From: a phage
Reading direction: 5' to 3' (one strand)
Sequence record: PZ445527.1
DNA length: 64,000 nucleotides
The position numbers and the translations under genes are program-made. The notes below the pieces were generated by a model, which saw only the letters and a program-made list of their open reading frames with translations, had not been told where the DNA came from and made no database searches. Of this stretch, positions 5,064 to 56,502 are shown in pieces. Position 1 is the first letter of the stretch. Each line of letters begins with the position of its first letter.

Positions 5064-5360
5064 TTAATCCTCTGGATTATCATCCAGGAAATTTTTAATA
5101 GCTTCGTGCATAGTTTCCTTACGAAGCTGACGTCCAATCAAAATATGGTTAGCTTCTACTCGACCATTAGGTAAGCGATCTGCCAGAACTACTACAGGTA
5201 CTTGACGTACACCAAATTTCTGCATTAATTCTGTATTATCAGTCTCTTTATGGACTTCCAAGTTATAGTCATTGACTACTTTATCAAATACTGGCTCGAA
5301 AAGAGCACAAGGACGACACGTGGAACCTTTTAATAAATAAATAATTTTGCTCATATACAC
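5064..5360 (-). CDS. thioredoxin/glutaredoxin-fold protein (98 aa)
   Basis: CxxC redox motif (CRPC) near the N-terminus, of thioredoxin-fold size. Confidence 0.6.
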   Translation of the reverse strand: MYMSKIIYLLKGSTCRPCALFEPVFDKVVNDYNLEVHKETDNTELMQKFGVRQVPVVVLADRLPNGRVEANHILIGRQLRKETMHEAIKNFLDDNPED

Positions 5361-5367
5361 TCCTATT

Positions 5368-5907
5368 TTACTTGTTAAGCTCTTCTAAATCTGGTATATA
5401 TCCAAGAAACTCCTCAATTAAAGCGTACTCCCCAGCAATCTCCTGTCTAGACTTATTCGCTAAGTCTACTGCCAGAGCTAAGTCTTCATAATTGAAGGTT
5501 CCTTTCATACGTTTTCGGCCTGTTTCATCCGTAATTTGAACTCTCCATTTCTGCCTATCTTTAGCCCACATAACATTTGCATATCCAGATTTGGACTTTC
5601 TATGCTTCTTATTACGACAATTTTGTGGTTTAGATGCAGAACGTAAGTTTTTCCATCGGTTATTTTGTGGATTTCTATCTATGTGATCCACAAATTCAGG
5701 TATATATCCTTCCATATATAGGAAGGCCCATCTATGGGCTCCCTGCCTCTCCCCTTCCACCATTATCATTATGTAATCATTGTTATATAGAGTTCCAGCT
5801 TCCATTCCCCTCTTTACATACTGATTATTACCATCTATCTTCCAGGTAAATATCCCGGTTTCTGGATTATATTCTAGTAATTCTTTTAGTCTTTCTTGAG
5901 TGATCAC
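5368..5907 (-). CDS. HNH homing endonuclease (MITQERLKEL family, copy 1)
   Basis: GTG start. HNH_3-like DHIDRNPQNNRWKNLR followed by an AP2-like DNA-binding half. Paralogous to 29152..29694 and 55085..55615. Confidence 0.8.
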   Translation of the reverse strand: MITQERLKELLEYNPETGIFTWKIDGNNQYVKRGMEAGTLYNNDYIMIMVEGERQGAHRWAFLYMEGYIPEFVDHIDRNPQNNRWKNLRSASKPQNCRNKKHRKSKSGYANVMWAKDRQKWRVQITDETGRKRMKGTFNYEDLALAVDLANKSRQEIAGEYALIEEFLGYIPDLEELNK

Positions 5908-6308
5908 AATTTATTAATGGCCTCTAAGAAGTTTTTCATGCACTTAACAGTTGCGGTGCTGAGGTCTAGAGTAGTTCCTAAACATTCTGTTAATGCTGCC
6001 TGGTAAGGCGCTTTTAAACGCCCTTCAGGGACTTCTACCTTTTTGTAGGTTTTATTCTTTACTTTATCTAGCATAGCTTCAAGAACATTGAGAGGCAACT
6101 TCGCACCCTCAATATTCACACCAAGCATTTCGGTCAGCATGTTATTAAGATCAATACGAGTAAGTTTCTTGCCTTTAGACATAGTAGTTCCTGCCTTCTT
6201 CTCAAGTTTTTTACGCTCTGGTGAATCGAGGTCACGTAATGCGATGTTCAACTCATATGGAGCCATGTTATAATGTTCCGCCATTTGAGTGTAGAAACGA
6301 TCAGACAT
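5904..6308 (-). CDS. hypothetical protein (134 aa)
   Basis: First ORF after promoter 6342..6370, with RBS AAGAGAGG. Confidence 0.6.
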   Translation of the reverse strand: MSDRFYTQMAEHYNMAPYELNIALRDLDSPERKKLEKKAGTTMSKGKKLTRIDLNNMLTEMLGVNIEGAKLPLNVLEAMLDKVKNKTYKKVEVPEGRLKAPYQAALTECLGTTLDLSTATVKCMKNFLEAINKL

Positions 6309-23798: not shown

Positions 23799-24620
23799 TT
23801 AAAATAGATCATATTCTAATCTATTGGGATTTTCTCGGTATCCATAAGACGTAAGAGTACCCCTCATATACTCTGCGTCAACAGGATTAGATGTTACTAG
23901 AACCACTTTTAGTGGTCTTTGACCTAAAAATAGTATATGATCTAATAAGTCTTTTCCTTGTACCTCTGGATCTCCTAAATCTGAGTCCATAAATAAATAG
24001 GATCCTGTGAAACTAAATATATCTGATAGTTCCAGCGCACCTATAACTGTACGACAAATAATGGACATTTCAGGTAGATCTCTAACATCGTCTATTAGAA
24101 TATTGGTCTGCTTCCCAATTTCTGCATTACATAAACCATTTACTAGTTTTTCTCTTTCCCCTTTAGCTTGTTCGAAAGTGGTGAAGCCAGGAGATACGAA
24201 AAACTTTCCACCTAATGTAATGCTATACACAAAACCCTCTGGGAGTAGTTCTACACCTACGGTTTTATTAGTATTAATCCTATTTAACTTAAAATTTGTC
24301 TCTCTTAGATTAATAATTCTGTTATCCCACGGTATAGTATTTATATGGTCGATCATATAAGGCGGCTCTTCACCATAATGGAGCAACCACGCTATTCGGT
24401 GTCCATAAATAATTGTGGGTTTATTATCTAAGAGCAAACTAACTCTGATGTACCCATCAGAGTTCTTACTACATATTTCTCTCCCAGCATATAGGGTGTG
24501 CCAAGTTTTATTCTTGTATTTATTAGGCTTATAAAATAATTTACCGGTATAAGGATTATACTCTATAATTTCTCGAATATAATCTATATATGGTAGTATT
24601 TGTTTTTGTAATTTACCCAT
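23799..24620 (-). CDS. HNH homing endonuclease fused to a receiver-like C-terminal domain (273 aa)
   Basis: The N-terminal half has an HNH_3-type motif (IDHINTIPWDNRIINLR). The C-terminal 90 aa has a DxDLG-type block (LFMDSDLGDPEVQGKDLL). Confidence 0.65.
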   Translation of the reverse strand: MGKLQKQILPYIDYIREIIEYNPYTGKLFYKPNKYKNKTWHTLYAGREICSKNSDGYIRVSLLLDNKPTIIYGHRIAWLLHYGEEPPYMIDHINTIPWDNRIINLRETNFKLNRINTNKTVGVELLPEGFVYSITLGGKFFVSPGFTTFEQAKGEREKLVNGLCNAEIGKQTNILIDDVRDLPEMSIICRTVIGALELSDIFSFTGSYLFMDSDLGDPEVQGKDLLDHILFLGQRPLKVVLVTSNPVDAEYMRGTLTSYGYRENPNRLEYDLF

Positions 24621-28678: not shown

Positions 28679-29155
28679 TCACATCTCGGCAAGTTCTTGC
28701 TCAGTAATAACAGTATTACATAATGCGTCAACTTCTTCATTACCTCTAATACCTGAGTGCCCTTTAACCTTAATAAAGGTAGGGTTAGTATTATGAAAAT
28801 TAATATACTGTTGGGTTAGTTTAAATGCTTCTTGCCATAGTTCTAAATTGAGAGGAGCTTCACCATCTCCCTTCTTCCAGCCTTTCTTCTGCCAAGACCA
28901 CATCCAGCTTTCCATACCATTTTTACAGTATGCAGAATCAGTGTAGATTATAACTGGACGTTTATCATTCTTAGTAGCCCAGCGCAGAACTTCAACAATA
29001 GCTGTAAGTTCCATTTCATTGTTTGTGGTTTTTGGACTGAAACCCGACTTAGAACCCAAACGTTCGTCATTAGGATCATAAACTACGAAACCCCAAGCAC
29101 CTAAACCAGGATTACCTTTACAAGCCCCATCTGTATATATATGAAATGTACTCAT
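28679..29155 (-). CDS. rnh: ribonuclease H (RNase HI type, 158 aa)
   Basis: RNase HI motifs IYTDGACKGNPGLGAWG, NNEMEL, YTDS and a C-terminal GN..D. Confidence 0.85.
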   Translation of the reverse strand: MSTFHIYTDGACKGNPGLGAWGFVVYDPNDERLGSKSGFSPKTTNNEMELTAIVEVLRWATKNDKRPVIIYTDSAYCKNGMESWMWSWQKKGWKKGDGEAPLNLELWQEAFKLTQQYINFHNTNPTFIKVKGHSGIRGNEEVDALCNTVITEQELAEM

Positions 29156-29694
29156 TTATTAAGTTCCTCTAAAATAGGGGGTGGTTTTGTGGAATCAAAA
29201 GTTTCTATAACAGCGTTTTTACCGTGTAACTGTAGACGAAGTTCATTGGCACATTGAATGGCGGATTCTAGGTCTTTGTACTCAAAATAACCACCATATA
29301 CTGACTTTTTATCGGAGTCTCTAACATGTACTTGCCATTTCTGATTTTGCCTATTCCAGCTAATTCCTAGATAACCAGATTTACTTCTAGTGGTTTTATT
29401 TCTCTGATTCTCTTGGTAATTAGATTTCCTGAGATTAATCCATCTATTATCATCTCGTATGCGGTTTATGTGGTCTACCATTTCCGGTAGATAGCCTTCC
29501 ATATAGAGAAATGCTAGCTGATGCGCATAATATGGATTTTTATCCACGGATATAGTTATATATCCGTCTTTTCTTAGATGACCAGCAATACTTCCTATTT
29601 TTCCGTTTCTACCCCTGACTCCCGTCCTTCTAGTAAATATTCCGGTATCGGGGTTATAATCGAATAGTTCTTTTAATCTTTCTTGTGTGATCAT
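29152..29694 (-). CDS. HNH homing endonuclease (MITQERLKEL family, copy 2)
   Basis: Same N-terminus, HNH motif (VDHINRIRDDNRWINLR) and C-terminal ...EELNK as copies 1 and 3. ATGA overlaps on both sides. Confidence 0.8.
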   Translation of the reverse strand: MITQERLKELFDYNPDTGIFTRRTGVRGRNGKIGSIAGHLRKDGYITISVDKNPYYAHQLAFLYMEGYLPEMVDHINRIRDDNRWINLRKSNYQENQRNKTTRSKSGYLGISWNRQNQKWQVHVRDSDKKSVYGGYFEYKDLESAIQCANELRLQLHGKNAVIETFDSTKPPPILEELNK

Positions 29695-30074
29695 TCATCT
29701 AACCATCCTATGTCTATACTAAGTAATGCTTTTATTCCTGTAATACCTGTACCATAGGTATTATATCGAATAGCACTTCTGCTCTTTACTTCAAGTATAT
29801 TTTCATACTCTGTATTTTCTAGAATTTCTGTAGATATACCTAAATATCCTGATTGATCTTCCTCGTCCCAACCCATATCTTCTAGAAGATTTAGACGTAA
29901 TTCTACCTTCTCATCTCCATTGCCTACAGAGTAGTAGTCTTCTAAAGTCCTGAATTTAGAAGTGATAGAGTCTAGTATTAATAATATCTGTTCCTTAGTA
30001 ATAGTTTCTTTATCACCCTGTAAGTAATTGGAGTAATTCAGAAGGGCTTGTTCTAATTCAATTTCTTTACTCAT
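29691..30074 (-). CDS. hypothetical acidic protein (127 aa)
   Basis: First ORF after promoter 30116..30145. Confidence 0.55.
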   Translation of the reverse strand: MSKEIELEQALLNYSNYLQGDKETITKEQILLILDSITSKFRTLEDYYSVGNGDEKVELRLNLLEDMGWDEEDQSGYLGISTEILENTEYENILEVKSRSAIRYNTYGTGITGIKALLSIDIGWLDE

Positions 30075-32755: not shown

Positions 32756-33247
32756 TTATAAACTATCAAGCTCCAATAGTTTAGCATCACGCCATTCTAT
32801 AGCATCCTCTAATTCTTTAAATGTTTTTGTATATTTTACGCCTTTACGAGCTATCTGGACTTGATATGATCCACTAGCTTTTTGATGAATATTTTTAATA
32901 CCTAGCTTATTGTCTTTATGCGCCCCGACATTCTTTCCGTTACTGAATCTATCAGAAGCTACTAGGTTAATAGCTCTATTATCATGTCGTATTCTATTAT
33001 CGTGGTCTACTTCAGGTGGCAGATACCCATGAATTTTAGCAAAGATTACCCTATGGGCTAAGTAGGGGTATCCTTTAATATTTAATACTATATATCCTGT
33101 AGATTTATCTAAGGAGCCTGCTGGTTTTCCGGCATATTTGGTATTAAATGTTTTATTATCTCTAGGTCTATGAGTCAATATTCCAGTATATGGATCATAA
33201 TCAAATAATTTAGCTACCTCTAGATGATCTTCTAATGTTTTTGACAT
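32756..33247 (-). CDS. HNH homing endonuclease between nrdA and nrdB (about 163 aa)
   Basis: HNH_3 motif VDHDNRIRHDNRAINL plus an AP2-like C-terminal half. The track ORF starts at 33262, but MSKTLEDH at 33247 is more likely. Confidence 0.8.
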   Translation of the reverse strand: MSKTLEDHLEVAKLFDYDPYTGILTHRPRDNKTFNTKYAGKPAGSLDKSTGYIVLNIKGYPYLAHRVIFAKIHGYLPPEVDHDNRIRHDNRAINLVASDRFSNGKNVGAHKDNKLGIKNIHQKASGSYQVQIARKGVKYTKTFKELEDAIEWRDAKLLELDSL

Positions 33248-33311
33248 AATTATAATTTCCAACCAATTAGTATAAAAATAAGAGGGTTATAATTAACCCT
33301 CTTTACTAGTT

Positions 33312-36300
33312 TTATAAGGTGCAGCCACCTGAAGAACATCCTGTAGTTTCTCCAGCTCCTCCACCATTCGCAGTGTTAAAGTTAGCATAATACCAGGTTT
33401 TTATACCATACTTAACCGCAGTCATAAAGTCACGAACTACTACTGGGCCAGGGATGATTTCATTCTCGAATTTAGAGTAATCATAATACATCTGGAAACT
33501 TGATGACTGACTCAAGAATTTTTGGTAAACGGCGTTCCACTTGATCCACTCAATACGATCTACATCATAGGCCAGTTTATAGCTCATGAGAGTATCCCAA
33601 TCAGTTGCACCTGGGGCAATTGCAATTACTTTATTCACTGCACTACCCTTGATAGATACAATCTTACGAGGTGGTTCAATAGAGTTAGTAACGCCTAACA
33701 GAACAGAGGAACTTTCTCCCGGCATCTGCGCAGTCAGAACAGAGTTACGCATACCGTATTTCAGAATGTCTGCACGCAGAGATTCCCAATCCATTTCTAG
33801 ACCTACGGATACCAGCTCATCAACAGTTTTCTTATACGTGTCGATTACCAGAATTCCTTTGGATGGTTTAGTACGATTAAACCATTCACATGCACCTTGT
33901 TCTTTAGCCAGACGTACAGAGGCTTTATGTAGGAAGTAAGACAGTTTTTCAGCTTCACGATGAATCCAGTTACGTGCTTCAACGCCTTCATAAGCCAAAC
34001 CTTCCGCCGCCATTGCACCTGCTGCGTTCATCAGACCAATACCAACATTACGACGTTTCTTAGCCGTATATTCCATAGTTGGGAACGGATAATCCTGAAT
34101 TTCAATGATGGTATCAACGAATTTCAGGAGGATGTAGCAAGTTTTCTCCCACTCAGCCAGAGATTCCATGCGTCCTAGTACAACACCACCTAAGTTACAC
34201 AGAGATACTTCACCAATATCCTCTGGCTTCATTTGATCAAGCTGCTCTTTTGTCTTATACAGCTCTGTGATATGATGGAACGGGCGTGTAGGCTGAGTAA
34301 TTTCTACACAGTTACCCGCTAAAATGCCATTAAATACACCTAAGTTTAATTTAGGTTCTGTAAAGCAATAAGTATCACTAATACGACCAGTAAACTCAAC
34401 GTTAGTTACAGTTACAAAACGGGTTGCGTCTCTATTGGGGCGTGTTAGGTTTAAGAGTTTCTCTTTATCCAAAGAGAGTCCTAAATCTTTAAGTTTCCAG
34501 AAGCCACTACTCCCCACAATAAGCCTACTAGTCTCCTTGCAGTGGTATAGTTTACTAGTACCAGTACCATCTGGTAACTCGTGGTCACCTTCTTTGCGTC
34601 CTAAAATAATCTTGCTAGTAACCCCCAATTCTAGTAACAAATCCTTCACTTTACTTAGAAAATCAGGCTCTGCCGAAGCAACCACAATACTAGGAGTTGT
34701 GCCATTTTTCTGTATGCAGCCATCTGCATCTAAATATCCCTCTAACCATTTGATACGGCTATCAATAGTATACTCTGGGCCAGGTACAAAATACTTCGGC
34801 ATTAAATCAGACTTAACAATATAGCTCAGTCTACCTGTGCTGTCCAGTAATCCACTTCCCTGAATTTCTGCGTCAATTTTATCCACTAATGGTAGTTTGC
34901 CACCTTTTTCATAGAAGTACAGCTTAGGTTCTCCATGTCTTCCATAAGTTCCATCTCCAGTGAAGAAACCGTTAGTATAAGGAGATTTTAGTACCATATT
35001 TCCATGATCTACAATAGGATTACTAAATTTAGGCATTTTCATACCTACTTGCAAGTCTACTGCTCGTACCTCTTCTAGCCCCTGTTTGAAAGAGGTACGA
35101 CGATCCTCTCTGACATATTTGGGCTGGTGGTAGAACTTATGATAAAGAGTAGATTCAATAGTAGATCCATCAGAGAATGTGATTTTTATCAACTCCTGAG
35201 CTTCCCCAGTTTTAGTAGGGATAACTGTTGACCATTCTTGTCCGTTCCAAATCTCTACTTCTTTACCAACTAAATCAATAATCTCTATGTTACCATTTTT
35301 GGTTAAAATTTTTGTTTCTGGAGCTACACAAAGGTTTGTCATACGGATTGGATCAAGGAAGTTACCGTGACGATTAGATTCCCCGATGTGGTGCGCATAC
35401 ATACGTCCTGTTTCCATTCGGATACGTAGCCAAGTATCTAGGATTTCTTTTGCAGAGACTTTAGGAGCTGCTGGAACTGTTTTTCCTTCGTGGTCGATCT
35501 TTGTAAGAGATGCCACACGTTTCTCCGCTGCCACGTAGATTTCTTCAAATTTAGCCTCGTCATCACTATAAAACGCTTCATGAACTTCTGGAGCATAGAA
35601 GTATGACATTAGCGTAATATCTTCATTTTTCAGATAACGTTTTAACAAAAGATTGTTGAAGCTCAGAGAATAATCCATCTTATCAATTTTATTCTCGTCT
35701 GTAGCACGTTGTTGCTTAACCTGCATCAACTGAATGATTTCAGGGTCAAAGTATGGATAAGACACTGTAGCAGAACCACCACGAGTTTGCTGAGTATTGG
35801 CCTTTACTGAGCGATCAATGTGTCGATAATATGGCAGTTTTCCGGAATGCGGGAATGCCCCATTTCGCACCGGATCAGCAATTGATCTGCTTTCAAGATG
35901 ATACCCGATTCCCGCTCTGGCTGCAACCATTTTGAAGACGATGTGCTCGGCGGTGTCGATTGAATCCAACGTGTCAGTGGAATCCACGAGGCAGCAACTA
36001 GCAAATCCACGGTCACTAGAGCGCAGACCAACCAGTGGCGGCGTAGGAACGTTGATTTTGTGGAGCGACATTGCGTTGTAGAGGTCGATTGCATCTAGAA
36101 TTGTCCAGTTAGGTTGAGATAACATCGCCATTGCCATACCCATGTAGGCAAACTGCGGAGTTTCATAAATTTCACCAGTGGCTATGTTGCGGCGGGAATA
36201 CTTATCAAAGAACTGCTTCAGTCCACCACTAGTAAAAAGACGGTCACGATCATGGTCGATAACCTGATTCAGAGCTTCAAATTGCTCATCGGTAATCCAT

Positions 36301-36659
36301 GCACTCATGTCTTCCCATGCACCTACGCTAACCATGTGGTCATGGAAGAAGCGCAGAGAAGGTGGTTCGAAGGAATCATAAAGGCGTTTACGCATTTGCG
36401 CAAGACGTAATTCCTTTGCTGGCACATCGTATGCTGGGTTATCTTTGATAAGGCTTTCAGCAGCCTTAATTAATGCGTCCATCAGAGTGTCGGAATCTAC
36501 AACCCCTTTAGGCAGAGTTTTTTGAGCAGCCATAGTAATGGCTGACCAACTTACATCAACTGTTTTGCAACCATACTCTGCCCAACCATTGAGTTTTTCA
36601 GGAGCAAAGTCTTCTACAGTACCGTCACGTTTAATTACTTTTTCAATGCGATGGCTCAT
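33312..36659 (-). CDS. nrdA: ribonucleotide reductase class Ia alpha subunit precursor containing an intein (1115 aa; about 775 aa after splicing)
   Basis: ATP-cone (VIKRDGTVEDF), RNR barrel motifs and a C-terminal CSSGGC redox pair. Start at ATG 36659 after AAGGAAAA; the track ORF extends to 36764 across the promoter. Confidence 0.9.
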   Translation of the reverse strand: MSHRIEKVIKRDGTVEDFAPEKLNGWAEYGCKTVDVSWSAITMAAQKTLPKGVVDSDTLMDALIKAAESLIKDNPAYDVPAKELRLAQMRKRLYDSFEPPSLRFFHDHMVSVGAWEDMSAWITDEQFEALNQVIDHDRDRLFTSGGLKQFFDKYSRRNIATGEIYETPQFAYMGMAMAMLSQPNWTILDAIDLYNAMSLHKINVPTPPLVGLRSSDRGFASCCLVDSTDTLDSIDTAEHIVFKMVAARAGIGYHLESRSIADPVRNGAFPHSGKLPYYRHIDRSVKANTQQTRGGSATVSYPYFDPEIIQLMQVKQQRATDENKIDKMDYSLSFNNLLLKRYLKNEDITLMSYFYAPEVHEAFYSDDEAKFEEIYVAAEKRVASLTKIDHEGKTVPAAPKVSAKEILDTWLRIRMETGRMYAHHIGESNRHGNFLDPIRMTNLCVAPETKILTKNGNIEIIDLVGKEVEIWNGQEWSTVIPTKTGEAQELIKITFSDGSTIESTLYHKFYHQPKYVREDRRTSFKQGLEEVRAVDLQVGMKMPKFSNPIVDHGNMVLKSPYTNGFFTGDGTYGRHGEPKLYFYEKGGKLPLVDKIDAEIQGSGLLDSTGRLSYIVKSDLMPKYFVPGPEYTIDSRIKWLEGYLDADGCIQKNGTTPSIVVASAEPDFLSKVKDLLLELGVTSKIILGRKEGDHELPDGTGTSKLYHCKETSRLIVGSSGFWKLKDLGLSLDKEKLLNLTRPNRDATRFVTVTNVEFTGRISDTYCFTEPKLNLGVFNGILAGNCVEITQPTRPFHHITELYKTKEQLDQMKPEDIGEVSLCNLGGVVLGRMESLAEWEKTCYILLKFVDTIIEIQDYPFPTMEYTAKKRRNVGIGLMNAAGAMAAEGLAYEGVEARNWIHREAEKLSYFLHKASVRLAKEQGACEWFNRTKPSKGILVIDTYKKTVDELVSVGLEMDWESLRADILKYGMRNSVLTAQMPGESSSVLLGVTNSIEPPRKIVSIKGSAVNKVIAIAPGATDWDTLMSYKLAYDVDRIEWIKWNAVYQKFLSQSSSFQMYYDYSKFENEIIPGPVVVRDFMTAVKYGIKTWYYANFNTANGGGAGETTGCSSGGCTL
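34311..35330 (-). mobile_element. intein (340 aa) with a LAGLIDADG homing-endonuclease domain, inserted in the NrdA catalytic N-L-C-x-E loop
   Basis: N-terminus MTNL|CVAPETKILT, C-terminus GILAGN|CVEITQPT. Dodecapeptide motifs NGFFTGDGTYG and LEGYLDADGCIQ. Confidence 0.85.
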
Positions 36660-36697
36660 TTGGTTTTCCTTTTTATAGTTATCAGGATTTAAGGAAT

Positions 36698-36726
36698 ATT
36701 CTACATTATTATTGGTCATTAGGCAA
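36698..36726 (-). promoter_or_regulatory. sigma70 promoter of nrdA (TTGCCT-17-TAGAAT)
   Basis: Hexamers and spacer read directly, between the terminator and the nrdA RBS. Confidence 0.6.
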
Positions 36727-36742
36727 ATAAAATTTTCTGATA

Positions 36743-36774
36743 GAAAAGGCCCGAGTATTTTCATACCCAGGCCC
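36743..36774 (-). terminator. rho-independent terminator
   Basis: A 10-bp stem GGCCTGGGTA/TACTCGGGCC (two G:U pairs), loop TGAAAA, followed by TTTTCT. Confidence 0.7.
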
Positions 36775-50239: not shown

Positions 50240-51211
50240 ATGACTAATGTAAAAGAATTTATTAAACGCTGTCAAGAAGCATATTATCAAGGCATGTCTT
50301 TAATCTCTGATGAAGAATATGATCGTCTGGTAAAACGCTTCCCGTTAGAGGAAGAGATCGGGCCTAAGGGTGATATTCCACACCTATATCGTATGTATTC
50401 TTTACAGAAAGTTTATTATAATCGTGGGGATAAACCACCATTCAATCCTTTAGGTCAGGTGGAAACCGATAAGTTAGATGGTTGTGCAATTTCTCTGCTA
50501 TATATTAACGGTGAATTTGTTCAAGCATTAACCCGTGGTAACGGTATTCTGGGGAATGATGTCACAAGCAACGTAAGATTGCTGAACATCCCTAAAAAGA
50601 TTTCCCAAAAAGTACCTACCCAAATCACTGGTGAAGTTCTAATTACAAAGGAAGTAGAAAATAAACGTAACTTTGCCTCTGGTGCTATTAACCTCAAAGA
50701 TAGCAATGATTTTGTACAACGCATTGGAGAAGGCGGTTTAATTTTTGTTGCTTATGGTATCCAATGTTCTGCTGAATCTGTAGGTATTACAGAAGCATAC
50801 TTAAAAGATATGCTTTGGCTAGAGAATGAGAACTTCTTAACAGTTGTTAATGTACGTTCCTTCTTTAAATGGATTCCAACCGACGGTAAAGTTGTTCGTA
50901 TTAATGATAATAATAAATTCTTCCGCGAAGGGTGGACTAATAAATTCCCTCGTGGAGCATTCGCTATTAAAGAGGATGAAGAAGGCGAGATTACAACTCT
51001 TACTAAAGTTGAATGGGCGACAGGAGCGTCTGGTAAAGTAACTCCAGTTGGTTATTTCGAACCGGTAATTATTGATGATGCAGTTATTACAAAAGCCACC
51101 CTTAATAATGTAGATTATATTAAATCACTAGATTTAGAGATCGGATGTCAGATTAGAGTAGTACGTGCAGGCGGTGTGATACCAAAGATTGTGGAAAGAG
51201 TTTATGAATAG
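50240..51211 (+). CDS. ligA: NAD-dependent DNA ligase, N-terminal part (adenylation plus OB fold, 323 aa)
   Basis: Ia-domain start, KxDG adenylation motif (ETDKLDGCAISLLY) and OB-fold end VRAGGVIPKI. Stops before the Zn finger. Confidence 0.85.
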   Translation: MTNVKEFIKRCQEAYYQGMSLISDEEYDRLVKRFPLEEEIGPKGDIPHLYRMYSLQKVYYNRGDKPPFNPLGQVETDKLDGCAISLLYINGEFVQALTRGNGILGNDVTSNVRLLNIPKKISQKVPTQITGEVLITKEVENKRNFASGAINLKDSNDFVQRIGEGGLIFVAYGIQCSAESVGITEAYLKDMLWLENENFLTVVNVRSFFKWIPTDGKVVRINDNNKFFREGWTNKFPRGAFAIKEDEEGEITTLTKVEWATGASGKVTPVGYFEPVIIDDAVITKATLNNVDYIKSLDLEIGCQIRVVRAGGVIPKIVERVYE

Positions 51212-51845
51212 CGGAGTTTATCCACTGATAGTAAAAGGATATAAATATGTTGGCTATTCCAGAAATATTGATAGAAGGTTTAAGGAGCATACATATACTT
51301 ATGTTACTAATCTAGGTCATATAGACTCCCATATCCCGAGAAACTTACTAGGTGTACAGGTACAGAAGTCAGATATAAGCATAGAAATTCTAGAGTATAT
51401 TTCTCCGGAAGAGAGTACTGATGTATTTTTAAGGGCAGAAGATTTGTGGATACAGAGGATTTGTCCAGAGCTAAATACAAACGTTCCTTTATCTAACTTA
51501 GTCGAAGCAGTAGAATATTGTATTTCAAACCCATCTGAAACGTATAAATCAGCGGCCTCAAAGTTCAACATTACACCTAAAATGTTAGAGCATGTTGCCT
51601 CTGGAGGATATAACTCCTTAGGATGCATTTTATCAAGAAGTACTTTAGAACTATTTCGTAGTAAGAAATATAAAGAACTAATATTAGTACACGAAAATGG
51701 GGCTAGGTTTGTAGCGACGTCTTACCTTGAATTACATAGATTATCTGGGCTAGATAGGCATAGAATATCTGACCTACATAAAGGCAAGTACCCCACCTTT
51801 AAAGGGTGGACCCTTTTAACCCCATCTACCATATCGGAATTATAA
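51204..51845 (+). CDS. GIY-YIG homing endonuclease inserted between the ligase halves (about 213 aa)
   Basis: GIY-YIG core GVYPLIV..YKYVGYSRNIDRRFKEH. ATGAATAG overlap with the ligase-A stop. Confidence 0.8.
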   Translation: MNSGVYPLIVKGYKYVGYSRNIDRRFKEHTYTYVTNLGHIDSHIPRNLLGVQVQKSDISIEILEYISPEESTDVFLRAEDLWIQRICPELNTNVPLSNLVEAVEYCISNPSETYKSAASKFNITPKMLEHVASGGYNSLGCILSRSTLELFRSKKYKELILVHENGARFVATSYLELHRLSGLDRHRISDLHKGKYPTFKGWTLLTPSTISEL

Positions 51846-53615: not shown

Positions 53616-55088
53616 ATGACCTTGTTTAACGTGCAAGCTGTAGTGTTGAAGATGCTTCTAGCTTCCGAACAGAAGCAAATAGCATTGGAAACATTCTCAA
53701 AACTGCATAAAGATCATTTTAATGACGCTTTCTCCTCAATTTACCAAGCCGTCCAGAATTATTATAAAAAATATAACGCAATGCCGTCCATTGACGCACT
53801 TATGCTTGAGGCCAATAGGAACGCCCGCCTTTCTCAAGCTCTAGTCGTCTTAGCTAACACTCAAATTCCAGAAGTTAGCATGGAACAGGCACTTGAAGTC
53901 CTAGAGGCCGAGTATACACAGGATTTATTCCTGAAGCTTCTAGAAACAGACGTGCTTCAAGATTTAACAATGCTGGATCAGGGAGAAATTCTTAACCGAG
54001 TTGCCTCCCTTCACTTAAAATTAGAAGAGAAAGTAACGAATACTGGAAAAGTATTCAACGCAGATAACATGCGTATTTTCCAGAGAGAAGAAGATACCAA
54101 ACTGAACTTAATCGCTCTTGGTATTTGTAATGAGTTCGACGCTCAAATTGGTTTAGCTCGCACAGAAACGTTACTGCTTGGTGGTTGGCGTGGTACTGGT
54201 AAATCCATTATCTGTTCAAACATACAGGTTCAGCAATATTTGAATGGAGATATTGCTCCATACTTCTCAATTGAGATGAAAGAACATGAAGTATTTAGAC
54301 GTAATCTAGCCATGTTAGCTGGTGTATCAGCACTAGCAATGCGTAATAATACTCTAGAAGGCGCAGCTCTGTTGAGATTAGCCAGAACTAGAGCTAGGAT
54401 GTTTAATGGTGGTGAAGAGCTTTTCGATAACTTCGTTAAACAGTACACAATGGCTAAGATGAGTGATTTCTACGATATGGAAAGTAAGCTAATAGAAGGA
54501 TATGAGCTACATACTCCTATGATTATTGTTTATGATCCTGAGCTGTCTATTACAACAGTTGACGTAGAATTAAATAAATTAGTTGCTAGATATGGGGATA
54601 AAGTTACAGTAGCTTTACTGGACTATATTAACCAAACCCGACTTCCAGACTCTAAAACCATTGATATGTATGACTGGAAAGAACAGATGGTTGTTAGCTC
54701 GTCTTTCAAATCTATCTGCCAGAAACATAACGTGGCTGGTGTAGCCCCTTACCAGATTGATCAAGATGGTAGAACACGTATGTCAAAGGGGATTCTTGAT
54801 TCCGCAGACATGGCTGCTAATCTTAATGCTGCAAAAGCTGATAATGGTCAAGGTGCTATTATGTTTGACTTCGTTAAGACTCGTTCTTCTGATAGCGTGA
54901 AGTTTATGCCTAAAATGAACTGGGAAACCCTACGGATGGATAACACTACCAACCTAGCAATGGAAGATATATCTCAAATGGAAGCTGAGTTCGTTATCCC
55001 TATTGAGAAGGATAAGCCGGCTCAATCTAAACGTGCTAAGAAAGACAAAGCTGAAAATTCAACAGGTGAACAGGCCAGCGATATATGA
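53616..55088 (+). CDS. DnaB-like replicative DNA helicase (about 490 aa)
   Basis: Walker A GGWRGTGKS and a RecA-like core. The start is after the terminator: ATG 53616 or in-frame TTG 53622, 7 nt after GGAG. Confidence 0.75.
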   Translation: MTLFNVQAVVLKMLLASEQKQIALETFSKLHKDHFNDAFSSIYQAVQNYYKKYNAMPSIDALMLEANRNARLSQALVVLANTQIPEVSMEQALEVLEAEYTQDLFLKLLETDVLQDLTMLDQGEILNRVASLHLKLEEKVTNTGKVFNADNMRIFQREEDTKLNLIALGICNEFDAQIGLARTETLLLGGWRGTGKSIICSNIQVQQYLNGDIAPYFSIEMKEHEVFRRNLAMLAGVSALAMRNNTLEGAALLRLARTRARMFNGGEELFDNFVKQYTMAKMSDFYDMESKLIEGYELHTPMIIVYDPELSITTVDVELNKLVARYGDKVTVALLDYINQTRLPDSKTIDMYDWKEQMVVSSSFKSICQKHNVAGVAPYQIDQDGRTRMSKGILDSADMAANLNAAKADNGQGAIMFDFVKTRSSDSVKFMPKMNWETLRMDNTTNLAMEDISQMEAEFVIPIEKDKPAQSKRAKKDKAENSTGEQASDI

Positions 55089-55615
55089 TAACACAGGAAC
55101 GACTAAAAGAACTGTTTGACTACTCCCCAGAGACTGGGGAGTTTACTAGAAAAGTATCTAGAGGCAATCAGAAAGCTGGTAGTATTGCGGGTACTCTAGA
55201 TAGTGGATACATACGGATAAGGGTAGATAGAAAATTATACTTTGCACACCAACTAGCCTTCCTATACATGGAAGGATATATGCCAGAGGAAGTAGACCAT
55301 ATTAATCGAATTACTTGGGATAATAGATGGATTAATATTAGGCCATCCACCCGGCAAGAAAATAGCAGAAATAAAACAGCTAGAAGTAAATCTGGATACT
55401 TGGGAGTTTTCTGGTTTAAGCGGGATCACAAATGGCATGTAAGAGTAGTAAATTCTATGGGAGAAAAAGTTCACGGTGGGCTCTTTAATTACGCAGATCT
55501 AAAGCTTGCAGTCACTAAAGCCAATGAACTACGTCTACAATTACATGGAGAAAATGCTGTTCAAGAGATCTTTGATCCAACTAAGTATCCTTCACTGGAG
55601 GAGTTAAATTCATGA
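55085..55615 (+). CDS. HNH homing endonuclease (MITQERLKEL family, copy 3) between helicase and primase
   Basis: Same architecture as copies 1 and 2 (VDHINRITWDNRWINIR ...EELNS). ATGA overlaps on both sides. Confidence 0.8.
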   Translation: MITQERLKELFDYSPETGEFTRKVSRGNQKAGSIAGTLDSGYIRIRVDRKLYFAHQLAFLYMEGYMPEEVDHINRITWDNRWINIRPSTRQENSRNKTARSKSGYLGVFWFKRDHKWHVRVVNSMGEKVHGGLFNYADLKLAVTKANELRLQLHGENAVQEIFDPTKYPSLEELNS

Positions 55616-56502
55616 GTAGAATAACAGAATTACTTGATCTTAAGGGAATTGAGTATAAAGATACTGGTGGAGATATTTTAATCTGTTGCTTAAATCCAGA
55701 TCATGACGATAAACACCCAAGTTTGCGTATTGACCCTGAAACAGGTATTATGCACTGCTTGAGTTGTGGCTTCGGTAAAGGTATACCGAGCATTTACCAT
55801 TATTTTAATGAGACTCAGTACCGACAGTCCCCAAGACTATCGCAAGTACGTAAAAAGATTTCAGAGATTAGGAATGGATCAACGAATCTTGCAATTCCTG
55901 AATCTGCTTACCTTTTCGAAGGTGATTTCCGAGGTATAAGTTCTAAGACCTTGAAGAAATATTTTGCTTTCCAACACCAAGCAGACTGGGAAGGCAGAAT
56001 TGTATTCCCAATCACAGATGCTGTTGGACGCAATATCCTATTTTTGGGTCGTTCTATAAACAGTTCTGCCCCTCCTAAATACTTAGTAAAACCAAAACAA
56101 GTTTCACCCCCAATTTTTCCTGTACGATATAATACTCCAGTTCTTATTCTAGTTGAAGGCATCTTTGATATGCTGAACCTAGAGGATAATGGTATAGACT
56201 ATGCTTCTTGCTGCTTTGGTACACATCAGTTTACTTCGGATAACATTGCAGATAAGTTCAGTCCTTATATTATTGCCGGTGTAAAAGTTGTTGTTATCTT
56301 ACTAGATAATGATGCTTCTGGTAATAAAGCCGCACAAGCATTGGCCAAGCTAATTCGTACAAAAACACGTTTAACACCTGTAGTTGCTAACTTCTTACTT
56401 CCAGAGGGTAAGGATCCTGGTGATTTAAATAAAGAAGAAGTCGATACGTTAGCAAAACGTATTGAAATTTTAGTTGCTGAATCGCTTAAAGATTTGGTAT
56501 AA
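55612..56502 (+). CDS. DNA primase (DnaG-like; CHC2 zinc finger plus Toprim, 296 aa)
   Basis: Zn finger CCLNPDHDDKHPSL...HCLSCG. Toprim residues VEGIFDML and LLDNDASGNKAA. Confidence 0.85.
   Translation: MSRITELLDLKGIEYKDTGGDILICCLNPDHDDKHPSLRIDPETGIMHCLSCGFGKGIPSIYHYFNETQYRQSPRLSQVRKKISEIRNGSTNLAIPESAYLFEGDFRGISSKTLKKYFAFQHQADWEGRIVFPITDAVGRNILFLGRSINSSAPPKYLVKPKQVSPPIFPVRYNTPVLILVEGIFDMLNLEDNGIDYASCCFGTHQFTSDNIADKFSPYIIAGVKVVVILLDNDASGNKAAQALAKLIRTKTRLTPVVANFLLPEGKDPGDLNKEEVDTLAKRIEILVAESLKDLV

Follow-up and report, generated by a model that had tools for sequence, protein, structure and literature searches.

Three free-standing HNH_3 endonuclease genes at exact gene junctions of a T5-like phage

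The reading frame at positions 5368 to 5907 of the phage sequence record PZ445527.1 lies in a window of 64,000 nucleotides, the whole stretch of DNA analyzed here, and shares this window with two similar reading frames at distant positions. A sequence-only reading had described the three frames as dispersed copies of one family of HNH/AP2 homing endonucleases, each placed between the genes of an operon. This raises the question of what the three proteins are, whether they descend from one another within this genome, and how each is accommodated between its neighbors. We refer to the frames as c1, c2, and c3 (Table 1). The evidence presented here makes it highly probable that they are free-standing homing endonuclease genes (HEGs) that were acquired separately and spread by predicted cleavage of empty alleles.

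Table 1. Coordinates and main properties of the features discussed in the text
Feature	Coordinates	Strand	Description
c1	5368..5907	-	179 aa, GTG start; probable free-standing HEG, HNH_3 and AP2-like, between the T5.038 homolog and thioredoxin
c2	29152..29694	-	180 aa; family of c1 and c3, between the rnh promoter and RNase H
c3	55085..55615	+	176 aa; family of c1 and c2, at the ATGA junction of helicase stop and primase start
Distant relative of c1-c3	32756..33262	-	between nrdB and nrdA; phmmer E 1e-15 to 1e-22 against c1-c3; HNH_3 E = 8e-9
HNH/HNH_3 genes	starts 5368, 14740, 23799, 29152, 32756, 47402, 55085		Pfam census
GIY-YIG gene	51189..51845	+	Pfam 22.6 bits, exactly the gathering score; E = 1.3e-4; weakest of the ten calls
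T5orf172/MUG113 gene	38082		Pfam census
Ribonucleotide reductase large subunit with intein	33312..36764	-	1150 aa; LAGLIDADG_3 at residues 672-758
ORF127	29691..30074	-	phrog_26840 match; passenger gene beside c2
HEG-linked substitution tract	55630..55693	+	first primase codons, +18..+81 from the ATG; almost entirely silent
Thioredoxin codons 2-7	5336..5349	-	changes specific to c1-type genomes; some non-synonymous (L4 to I/V, V5 to I)

Family relationship and fold

All three frames are present at full length and align end to end with 84 invariant columns. The invariant stretches comprise MITQERLKEL at the N-terminus, AFLYMEGY.PE.VDHI.R, NRW.N.R, SKSGY, and KW in the body of the protein, and LEELN at the C-terminus; residues vary within the VDHI(D/N)R core, in NRW.N(L/I)R, and in the C-terminal LEELN(K/S). 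The proposal of a single family defined by a common N-terminus, HNH core, KSGY block, and EELN end is borne out by this alignment, and pairwise comparison places the likeness well beyond the generic HNH motif. Amino acid identity is 49% between c1 and c2, 53% between c1 and c3, and 67% between c2 and c3, with a codon-aligned nucleotide identity of 54-65%. In a phmmer scan of the 225 window ORFs of at least 50 aa, the three frames find one another with E values of 1e-47 to 1e-71, so their likeness reaches far past the HNH motif and past chance. The same scan returned two more distant relatives, 32756..33262 and 23799..24620, the first of which occupies the nrdB/nrdA position where T5 has hegH.

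The nuclease core is identified by profile. Pfam HNH_3 scores for c1, c2, and c3 are 51.1, 44.4, and 46.2 bits and thus well above the cut-off of 24.8 (E of 1e-11 to 1e-13, the latter for c1), and PHROG 99, "HNH endonuclease", is matched at E of 1e-57 to 1e-62 (2e-57 for c1). All three proteins have the catalytic residues D74-H75, N87, and N96 (c2 numbering). Of these, D74 is conserved in at least 90% of 50 homologs, and the other three residues in all of them. When a profile of c1-c3 was compared with solved structures, the sole meaningful relative was I-HmuI (1u3e), to which the VDH...NLR...N core aligns.

The C-terminal part is less readily assigned by profile. A search of a large protein collection yielded 503 relatives at E ≤ 1e-5, many of which combine PF00847 (AP2) with PF13392. 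No AP2 match (PF00847) at the gathering score was obtained for the window proteins: c2 gives E = 0.1 and 13.4 bits against 33.3, and c1 and c3 give no match. We modeled the structure of c2 with AlphaFold2 from a 50-sequence alignment (pLDDT 93.9). The modeled fold resembles I-HmuI, and the nuclease core is followed by three strands and a long helix. These form a C-terminal three-stranded antiparallel sheet on one long helix that superposes on solved AP2/ERF (plant AP2) domains. Of the earlier HNH/AP2 assignment, the nuclease half stands, now as HNH_3 by profile, and the AP2 half comes from the structure model and is sub-threshold in Pfam. The combination of HNH_3 and AP2 is known from group 2 of the His-Me finger superfamily (PMC5714182). 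On the basis of the profiles and the model, c1-c3 are members of the I-HmuI-like HNH_3 class, with a predicted N-terminal β-sheet region for DNA contacts, a ββα-metal core, and a C-terminal AP2-type domain.

Occupied and empty sites in T5-like phages

The window belongs to a T5-like phage (Demerecviridae), and its flanks match about 445 Tequintavirus and Epseptimavirus records with 85-98% nucleotide identity. We queried each gene together with 400-nt flanks, a design in which a query coverage of at least 80% requires the insert. Inserts were found in about 17 of 537 matched records at the thioredoxin site (locus 1), about 36 of 558 at the RNase H site (locus 2), and about 72 of 549 at the helicase/primase site (locus 3), which corresponds to about 17, 36, and 72 of the roughly 445 T5-like records, counts that are inflated by GenBank/RefSeq duplicates. 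Independent IMG/VR samples give occupied fractions of 9/28, 7/27, and 9/27 for loci 1, 2, and 3.

In most other T5-like records the two flanks abut: the 800 nt of query flank span about 790-810 nt of the record at locus 1, and at locus 3 the span is exactly 804 nt. The empty locus 3, where the stop codon of helicase overlaps the start of primase, reads ...GCGATAT-ATGA-GTAGAATA, and the occupied locus contains an insert of 527 nt (530 nt in the T5-type allele) with ATGA on both sides. The empty locus 1 reads ...GAGGCCATTAATAA-CTATGAGTAA, and all endonuclease types enter directly after ATTAATAA. At locus 2, ORF127 and c2 stand in place of about 60 nt of the rnh leader, downstream of the promoter. 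In T5 (AY543070), no endonuclease is found at the thioredoxin junction (T5.038/T5.037) or between thy and rnh, and the D6 helicase/primase junction is occupied by hegJ. The three genes are, therefore, not fixed at their loci: most T5-like genomes have precise empty sites, and T5 lacks an insert at two of the loci. Beyond the T5-like phages, the family extends to Felixounaviruses, Jersey-like Salmonella phages, and others, with 540 records and 814 places at E ≤ 1e-20.

This distribution bears on the possibility that c1-c3 are domesticated or decaying, having been kept as AP2 DNA-binding or regulatory proteins or persisting as inert, nuclease-less passengers. The AP2 domain is a DNA-binding module that became a plant transcription factor domain (PMC5714182), and the frameshifted hegJ in the T5 record AY587007 indicates that decay occurs in the family. 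However, this frameshift is absent from AY543070 and may be a sequencing error, the catalytic D-H...N...N residues of c1-c3 are intact in full-length reading frames, and the sporadic distribution speaks against a function needed by the phage. We consider domestication or decay unlikely, and retain the reading as mobile HEGs.

Each of the window genes has a close counterpart in another phage, with 95-99% identity: c1 in VAH1 and SHSML-45, c2 in NR01, and c3 in T5_ev219 and Tennessee. At the protein level, c1 shares 98% identity with the gene that VAH1 carries at this site, and c3 is 99% identical to the T5_ev219 gene; the Tennessee copy of c3 (99% identical) is also located at the helicase/primase junction. 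Since these values contrast with 49-67% among the window genes themselves, c1-c3 are separate acquisitions, and intragenomic duplication was rejected as their origin on the same comparison. The earlier description of the copies as old rather than recent duplicates was right but understated, as it stopped short of independent acquisition.

Several lineages occupy the same sites. In the IMG/VR sample, the thioredoxin junction holds c1-type, YZU-L1-type, and hegF-like endonucleases (two each), together with a c2-like type and an SH9-type, so that at least five lineages are found at an identical junction. At the primase junction, three alleles (c3-type, T5 hegJ-type, and NR01-type) share 68-72% nucleotide identity. 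Alleles of one locus are no closer to one another than to alleles of other loci, an awkward result if protein sequence alone sets the target.

Two further observations concern the surroundings of c1. Over its last 200 nt (5908..6107, minus strand), the gene upstream of c1 is only 75-79% identical to almost all relatives, including HdH2 and SHSML-45, though the c1-type endonucleases of these two phages are 98-99% identical; VAH1 matches the whole region with 96.5% identity. This pattern suggests a recombination boundary beside c1. In addition, empty genomes have a T5.038 homolog whose C-terminal end (LEAINNYE*, TTAGAGGCCATTAATAACTATGAGTAA; 5904..5925 region, junctions of L007 and L008) resembles that of an endonuclease: of the final 27 nt of the endonuclease gene in KookSpook (LEEINNYE*), 25 are matched. 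Imperfect direct repeats of at least about 14 nt thus lie on either side of the insert and could reflect target duplication, microhomology-mediated insertion, or an old excision scar.

The window had been estimated to contain at least ten homing-endonuclease-type genes, and a profile census upholds the count of ten (Table 1). The intein-bearing ribonucleotide reductase large subunit differs from T5 nrdA, which measures 2436 nt (about 811 aa) and has no intein. ORF127, which gave no Pfam match, is present in 7/7 occupied and 0/20 empty RNase H loci, and for this reason behaves as the cargo of a two-gene cassette with the c2/Lindwurm-type endonuclease. It is absent from T5, DT57C, and SHSML-45, and vB_Sen_I1 has a different endonuclease allele without ORF127.

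The frame at 23799..24620 (minus strand, 273 aa) consists of an HNH_3 endonuclease (residues ~1-165, PHROG 99) joined in frame to a T5.084 homolog, and the two parts are not separated by a stop or restart codon. The second part (residues 173-271) is 50% identical to stand-alone T5.084 and matches Pfam cREC_REC (PF20274). The gene looks like a homing endonuclease fused to its downstream gene.

Junctions and flanking sequences

Each of c1-c3 is a separate ORF between the stop and start codons of intact neighbors, not within an intron or intein, and the placement inside operons with thioredoxin, RNase H, and helicase-primase contexts is as originally proposed. The start of c1 overlaps the upstream stop as GTGA at 5907..5904, within AAATTGTGATC. 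For c2, ATGA overlaps are found at both ends (29694..29691 and 29155..29152), and the same holds for c3 (55085..55088 and 55612..55615). The end of c1 reads AAGTAAAATAGGAGTGTATATGAGC: between its TAA and the ATG of thioredoxin at 5354 lies a spacer of 13 nt that includes AGGAG. Relatives do not start thioredoxin at the GTG (5360) that the ORF tool lists. The overlaps formerly assigned to both ends of every copy are, consequently, 4-nt overlaps at five of the six junctions, the exception being the 3′ end of c1.

In every examined allele that overlaps the downstream start, a GAGG or GGAG motif is located about 10-15 nt before that start and is encoded by the C-terminal EEL or GEL codons of the endonuclease. 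These tails, which resemble ribosome-binding sites, read TTAGAGGAACTTAATAAATGA in c2 and CTGGAGGAGTTAAATTCATGA in c3 and T5 hegJ, and the motif is likewise found in YZU-L1, KookSpook, Lindwurm, and vB_Sen_I1. The c1 tail reads GAAGAG, and c1 has its own AGGAG in the spacer instead. We infer that the C-terminal tail of the endonuclease supplies the ribosome-binding site of the downstream gene. This would explain why the insertions are tolerated. Each inserted gene begins at the position of the downstream start codon, its A/GTGA overlapping the stop of the gene before it, and its 3′ end would restore downstream translation through a second ATGA overlap with GAGG/GGAG in the EEL codons. In c1, downstream translation would depend on the separate AGGAG.

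The conserved 5′ and 3′ gene ends were also considered as recombination handles at the nucleotide level and rejected, with a probability of an identical codon given an identical amino acid of 0.55 and 0.54 at the two ends against 0.41-0.63 elsewhere. Synonymous positions at the ends are not unusually conserved, and the terminal conservation is therefore at the protein level.

A further and rather unlikely reading is one in which ATGA-type junctions of T5-like phages act as shared landing pads and the family carries a portable translational adaptor. This adaptor would consist of a start codon at the downstream start position and an EEL(N) tail with GAGG/GGAG and a new ATGA. Many lineages of differing DNA specificity would colonize such junctions and replace one another there, some of them dragging cargo such as ORF127.

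For locus 3 we compared the 600 nt flanking the junction on either side, using 10 occupied and 17 empty genomes; an eleventh occupied genome (T5_ev219) enters only the substitution table. Each of the 11 occupied genomes carries 6-17 substitutions at primase +17..+96, mostly within the tract listed in Table 1, and positions +50, +65, and +68 are invariably changed, by the silent substitutions C>T, C>T, and C>A, respectively. All 17 empty genomes are nearly invariant over +1..+105. Despite these substitutions, the primase peptide MSRITELLDLKGIEYKDTGGDILICCLNPDHDDKH is unchanged in 8/11 occupied genomes, the exceptions being E14D (L020) and D30E/D32E (L039, L040). All seven occupancy-associated sites with a Fisher p < 1e-4 fall in primase +18..+68, p-values that overstate independence, given the relatedness of the genomes and the inflation of counts by GenBank/RefSeq duplicates. 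Divergence between occupied and empty genomes is 0.128 and 0.114 in the first two 60-nt primase bins, compared with 0.02-0.04 on the helicase side. It is in this same part of primase that diversity within the empty genomes reaches its minimum (0.009-0.011) and diversity within the occupied ones its maximum (about 0.10). The HEG-linked divergence runs about 300 nt into primase, on this side only.

Such a pattern of silent changes is as expected if the enzyme recognizes a conserved sequence at the 5′ end of primase and occupied genomes are protected from it. Primase +18..+81 is accordingly our candidate for the recognition or cleavage region, which in occupied genomes would be immunized by silent substitutions.

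The thioredoxin changes listed in Table 1 are common to the window, L094, and L121 and occur in no empty-site genome. An upstream variant at locus 1, GTTAAGTGC, is found in several occupied genomes and in none of the sampled empty Tequintavirus-type genomes (L095-L114). On the rnh side of locus 2, the only change is in the Ser2 codon, from TCR to AGY, and is accounted for by the ATGA or GTGA overlap, which requires AGY. As this sole change is explained by the overlap and the insert has replaced the rnh leader, the flanks yield no candidate target at the RNase H site.

The predicted cleavage activity of c1-c3, the presumed position of their targets, and their putative gene drive can be combined into a homing cycle, as judged from sequence comparison. 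In a mixed infection with a HEG-less relative, the enzyme would nick or cut a conserved sequence in the neighboring essential gene; in the case of c3, this sequence most likely lies in the first ~80 nt of primase. Repair by recombination, with the occupied genome as template, would then copy the HEG and its flanks into the recipient, and the occupied genome would itself be protected by the silent substitutions in the cut sequence.

The one-sided divergence over some 300 nt of primase also fits co-conversion or marker exclusion, as would be expected if c1-c3 were chiefly weapons between phages or recombination boundaries that cut co-infecting relatives, with their own spread a by-product. Nuclease genes at boundaries of genetic exchange have been discussed for other phages (Barth et al. 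2023, as cited in PMC10644984 and PMC12639943). However, this reading shares its mechanism with homing, as the steps of cleavage and repair on which it depends are identical, and sequence cannot separate a benefit to the phage from selfish spread. As a primary role for c1-c3 we judge it very unlikely.

An involvement in housekeeping DNA processing is harder still to sustain. The enzymes could in principle introduce the single-strand nicks of T5 DNA, or, like HNH proteins of some cos phages, assist terminase. Nicking is the activity of I-HmuI-type enzymes, and site-specific nicks are present in the virion DNA of T5-like phages (PMC10644984; T5 annotation). Yet the nicks are common to T5 and BF23, and each of c1-c3 is missing from most relatives. 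Furthermore, none of the three genes is near packaging genes, and the target proposed in primase has no match to the annotated nick consensus Pu-pGCGC. We regard a housekeeping role as extremely improbable; T5 genomic nicking and packaging were dismissed as functions of c1-c3 on the sporadic distribution together with the lack of the GCGC consensus in the proposed target. Homing remains the preferred interpretation.

Comparison with known homing endonucleases

The closest named genes in T5 are hegJ (T5.120, "putative H-N-H-endonuclease P-TflX") and hegE (T5.051, "H-N-H-endonuclease F-TflV"), which belong to the c1-c3 subfamily, have the same length, and begin with the same MITQERLKEL sequence; hegJ also ends in LEELNS. 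Amino acid identity of c1-c3 is 49-66% to hegJ and 51-65% to hegE. T5 hegJ occupies the same helicase/primase ATGA junction as c3, to which it is 66% identical in amino acids and about 68% in nucleotides overall, with near-identical ends, and c3 is a divergent allele of it. In contrast, hegE is located at a T5 locus different from the c1-c3 sites, and hegA, hegC, and hegD (F-TflIV, I, and II) are far from c1-c3. The "F-" and "P-" labels of hegE and hegJ come from GenBank annotation alone. Our literature search, in which unrelated matches dominated, found no published characterization or target of hegE/F-TflV or hegJ/P-TflX.

The two T5 records differ in hegJ. In that of T5 ATCC 11303-B5 (AY587007, L001, 69700-70230), a frameshift some 50 codons into hegJ splits the gene, and the annotation lists only a 74-aa "ORF111", while AY543070 (L014, 69614-70147) contains an intact hegJ of 177 aa. 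The frameshift is either real decay in one stock or a sequencing error.

I-HmuI (PDB 1u3e) is an intron-encoded HNH nicking homing endonuclease of the Bacillus phage SPO1, with about 20% sequence identity to the window genes. It lies inside a group I intron and has C-terminal modules of the helix-turn-helix/NUMOD type, whereas c1-c3 are free-standing and have an AP2-type domain. F-TflI, F-TflII, and SegB are, like c1-c3, free-standing phage HEGs between genes, and their site-specific cleavage has been shown experimentally, together with preferential inheritance in the case of SegB (PMC2330249). F-TflI and F-TflII represent another subfamily, with HNH and NUMOD-type regions, located in the tRNA cluster and alignable to c1-c3 over little beyond the core; SegB is a GIY-YIG enzyme, unlike the HNH_3 proteins c1-c3. 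F-TflI, II, and IV of T5 have been characterized as site-specific endonucleases (Akulenko 2004, as cited in PMC2330249).

HEGs such as the T5 F-Tfl enzymes were named in the BF23 genome paper as the main contributor to differences between T5-like genomes (PMC10644984), and mobile HNH genes were again noted in a 2025 Tequintavirus paper that describes phage Tennessee (PMC12639943). Near-identical copies of all three window genes are annotated as HNH homing endonucleases, so the finding is in this respect already known: c1-c3 are an ordinary, well-documented, and already annotated feature of T5-like phages. What the present analysis adds is a map of the empty sites and a specific prediction of the target recognized by the enzymes of the primase junction. 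For the hegJ/P-TflX group, this prediction (primase +18..+81) is testable, and the natural pairs of occupied and empty alleles provide a clean set for cleavage assays. For annotators, the analysis is a reminder that the three "paralogs" of this window are separate acquisitions and not duplications.
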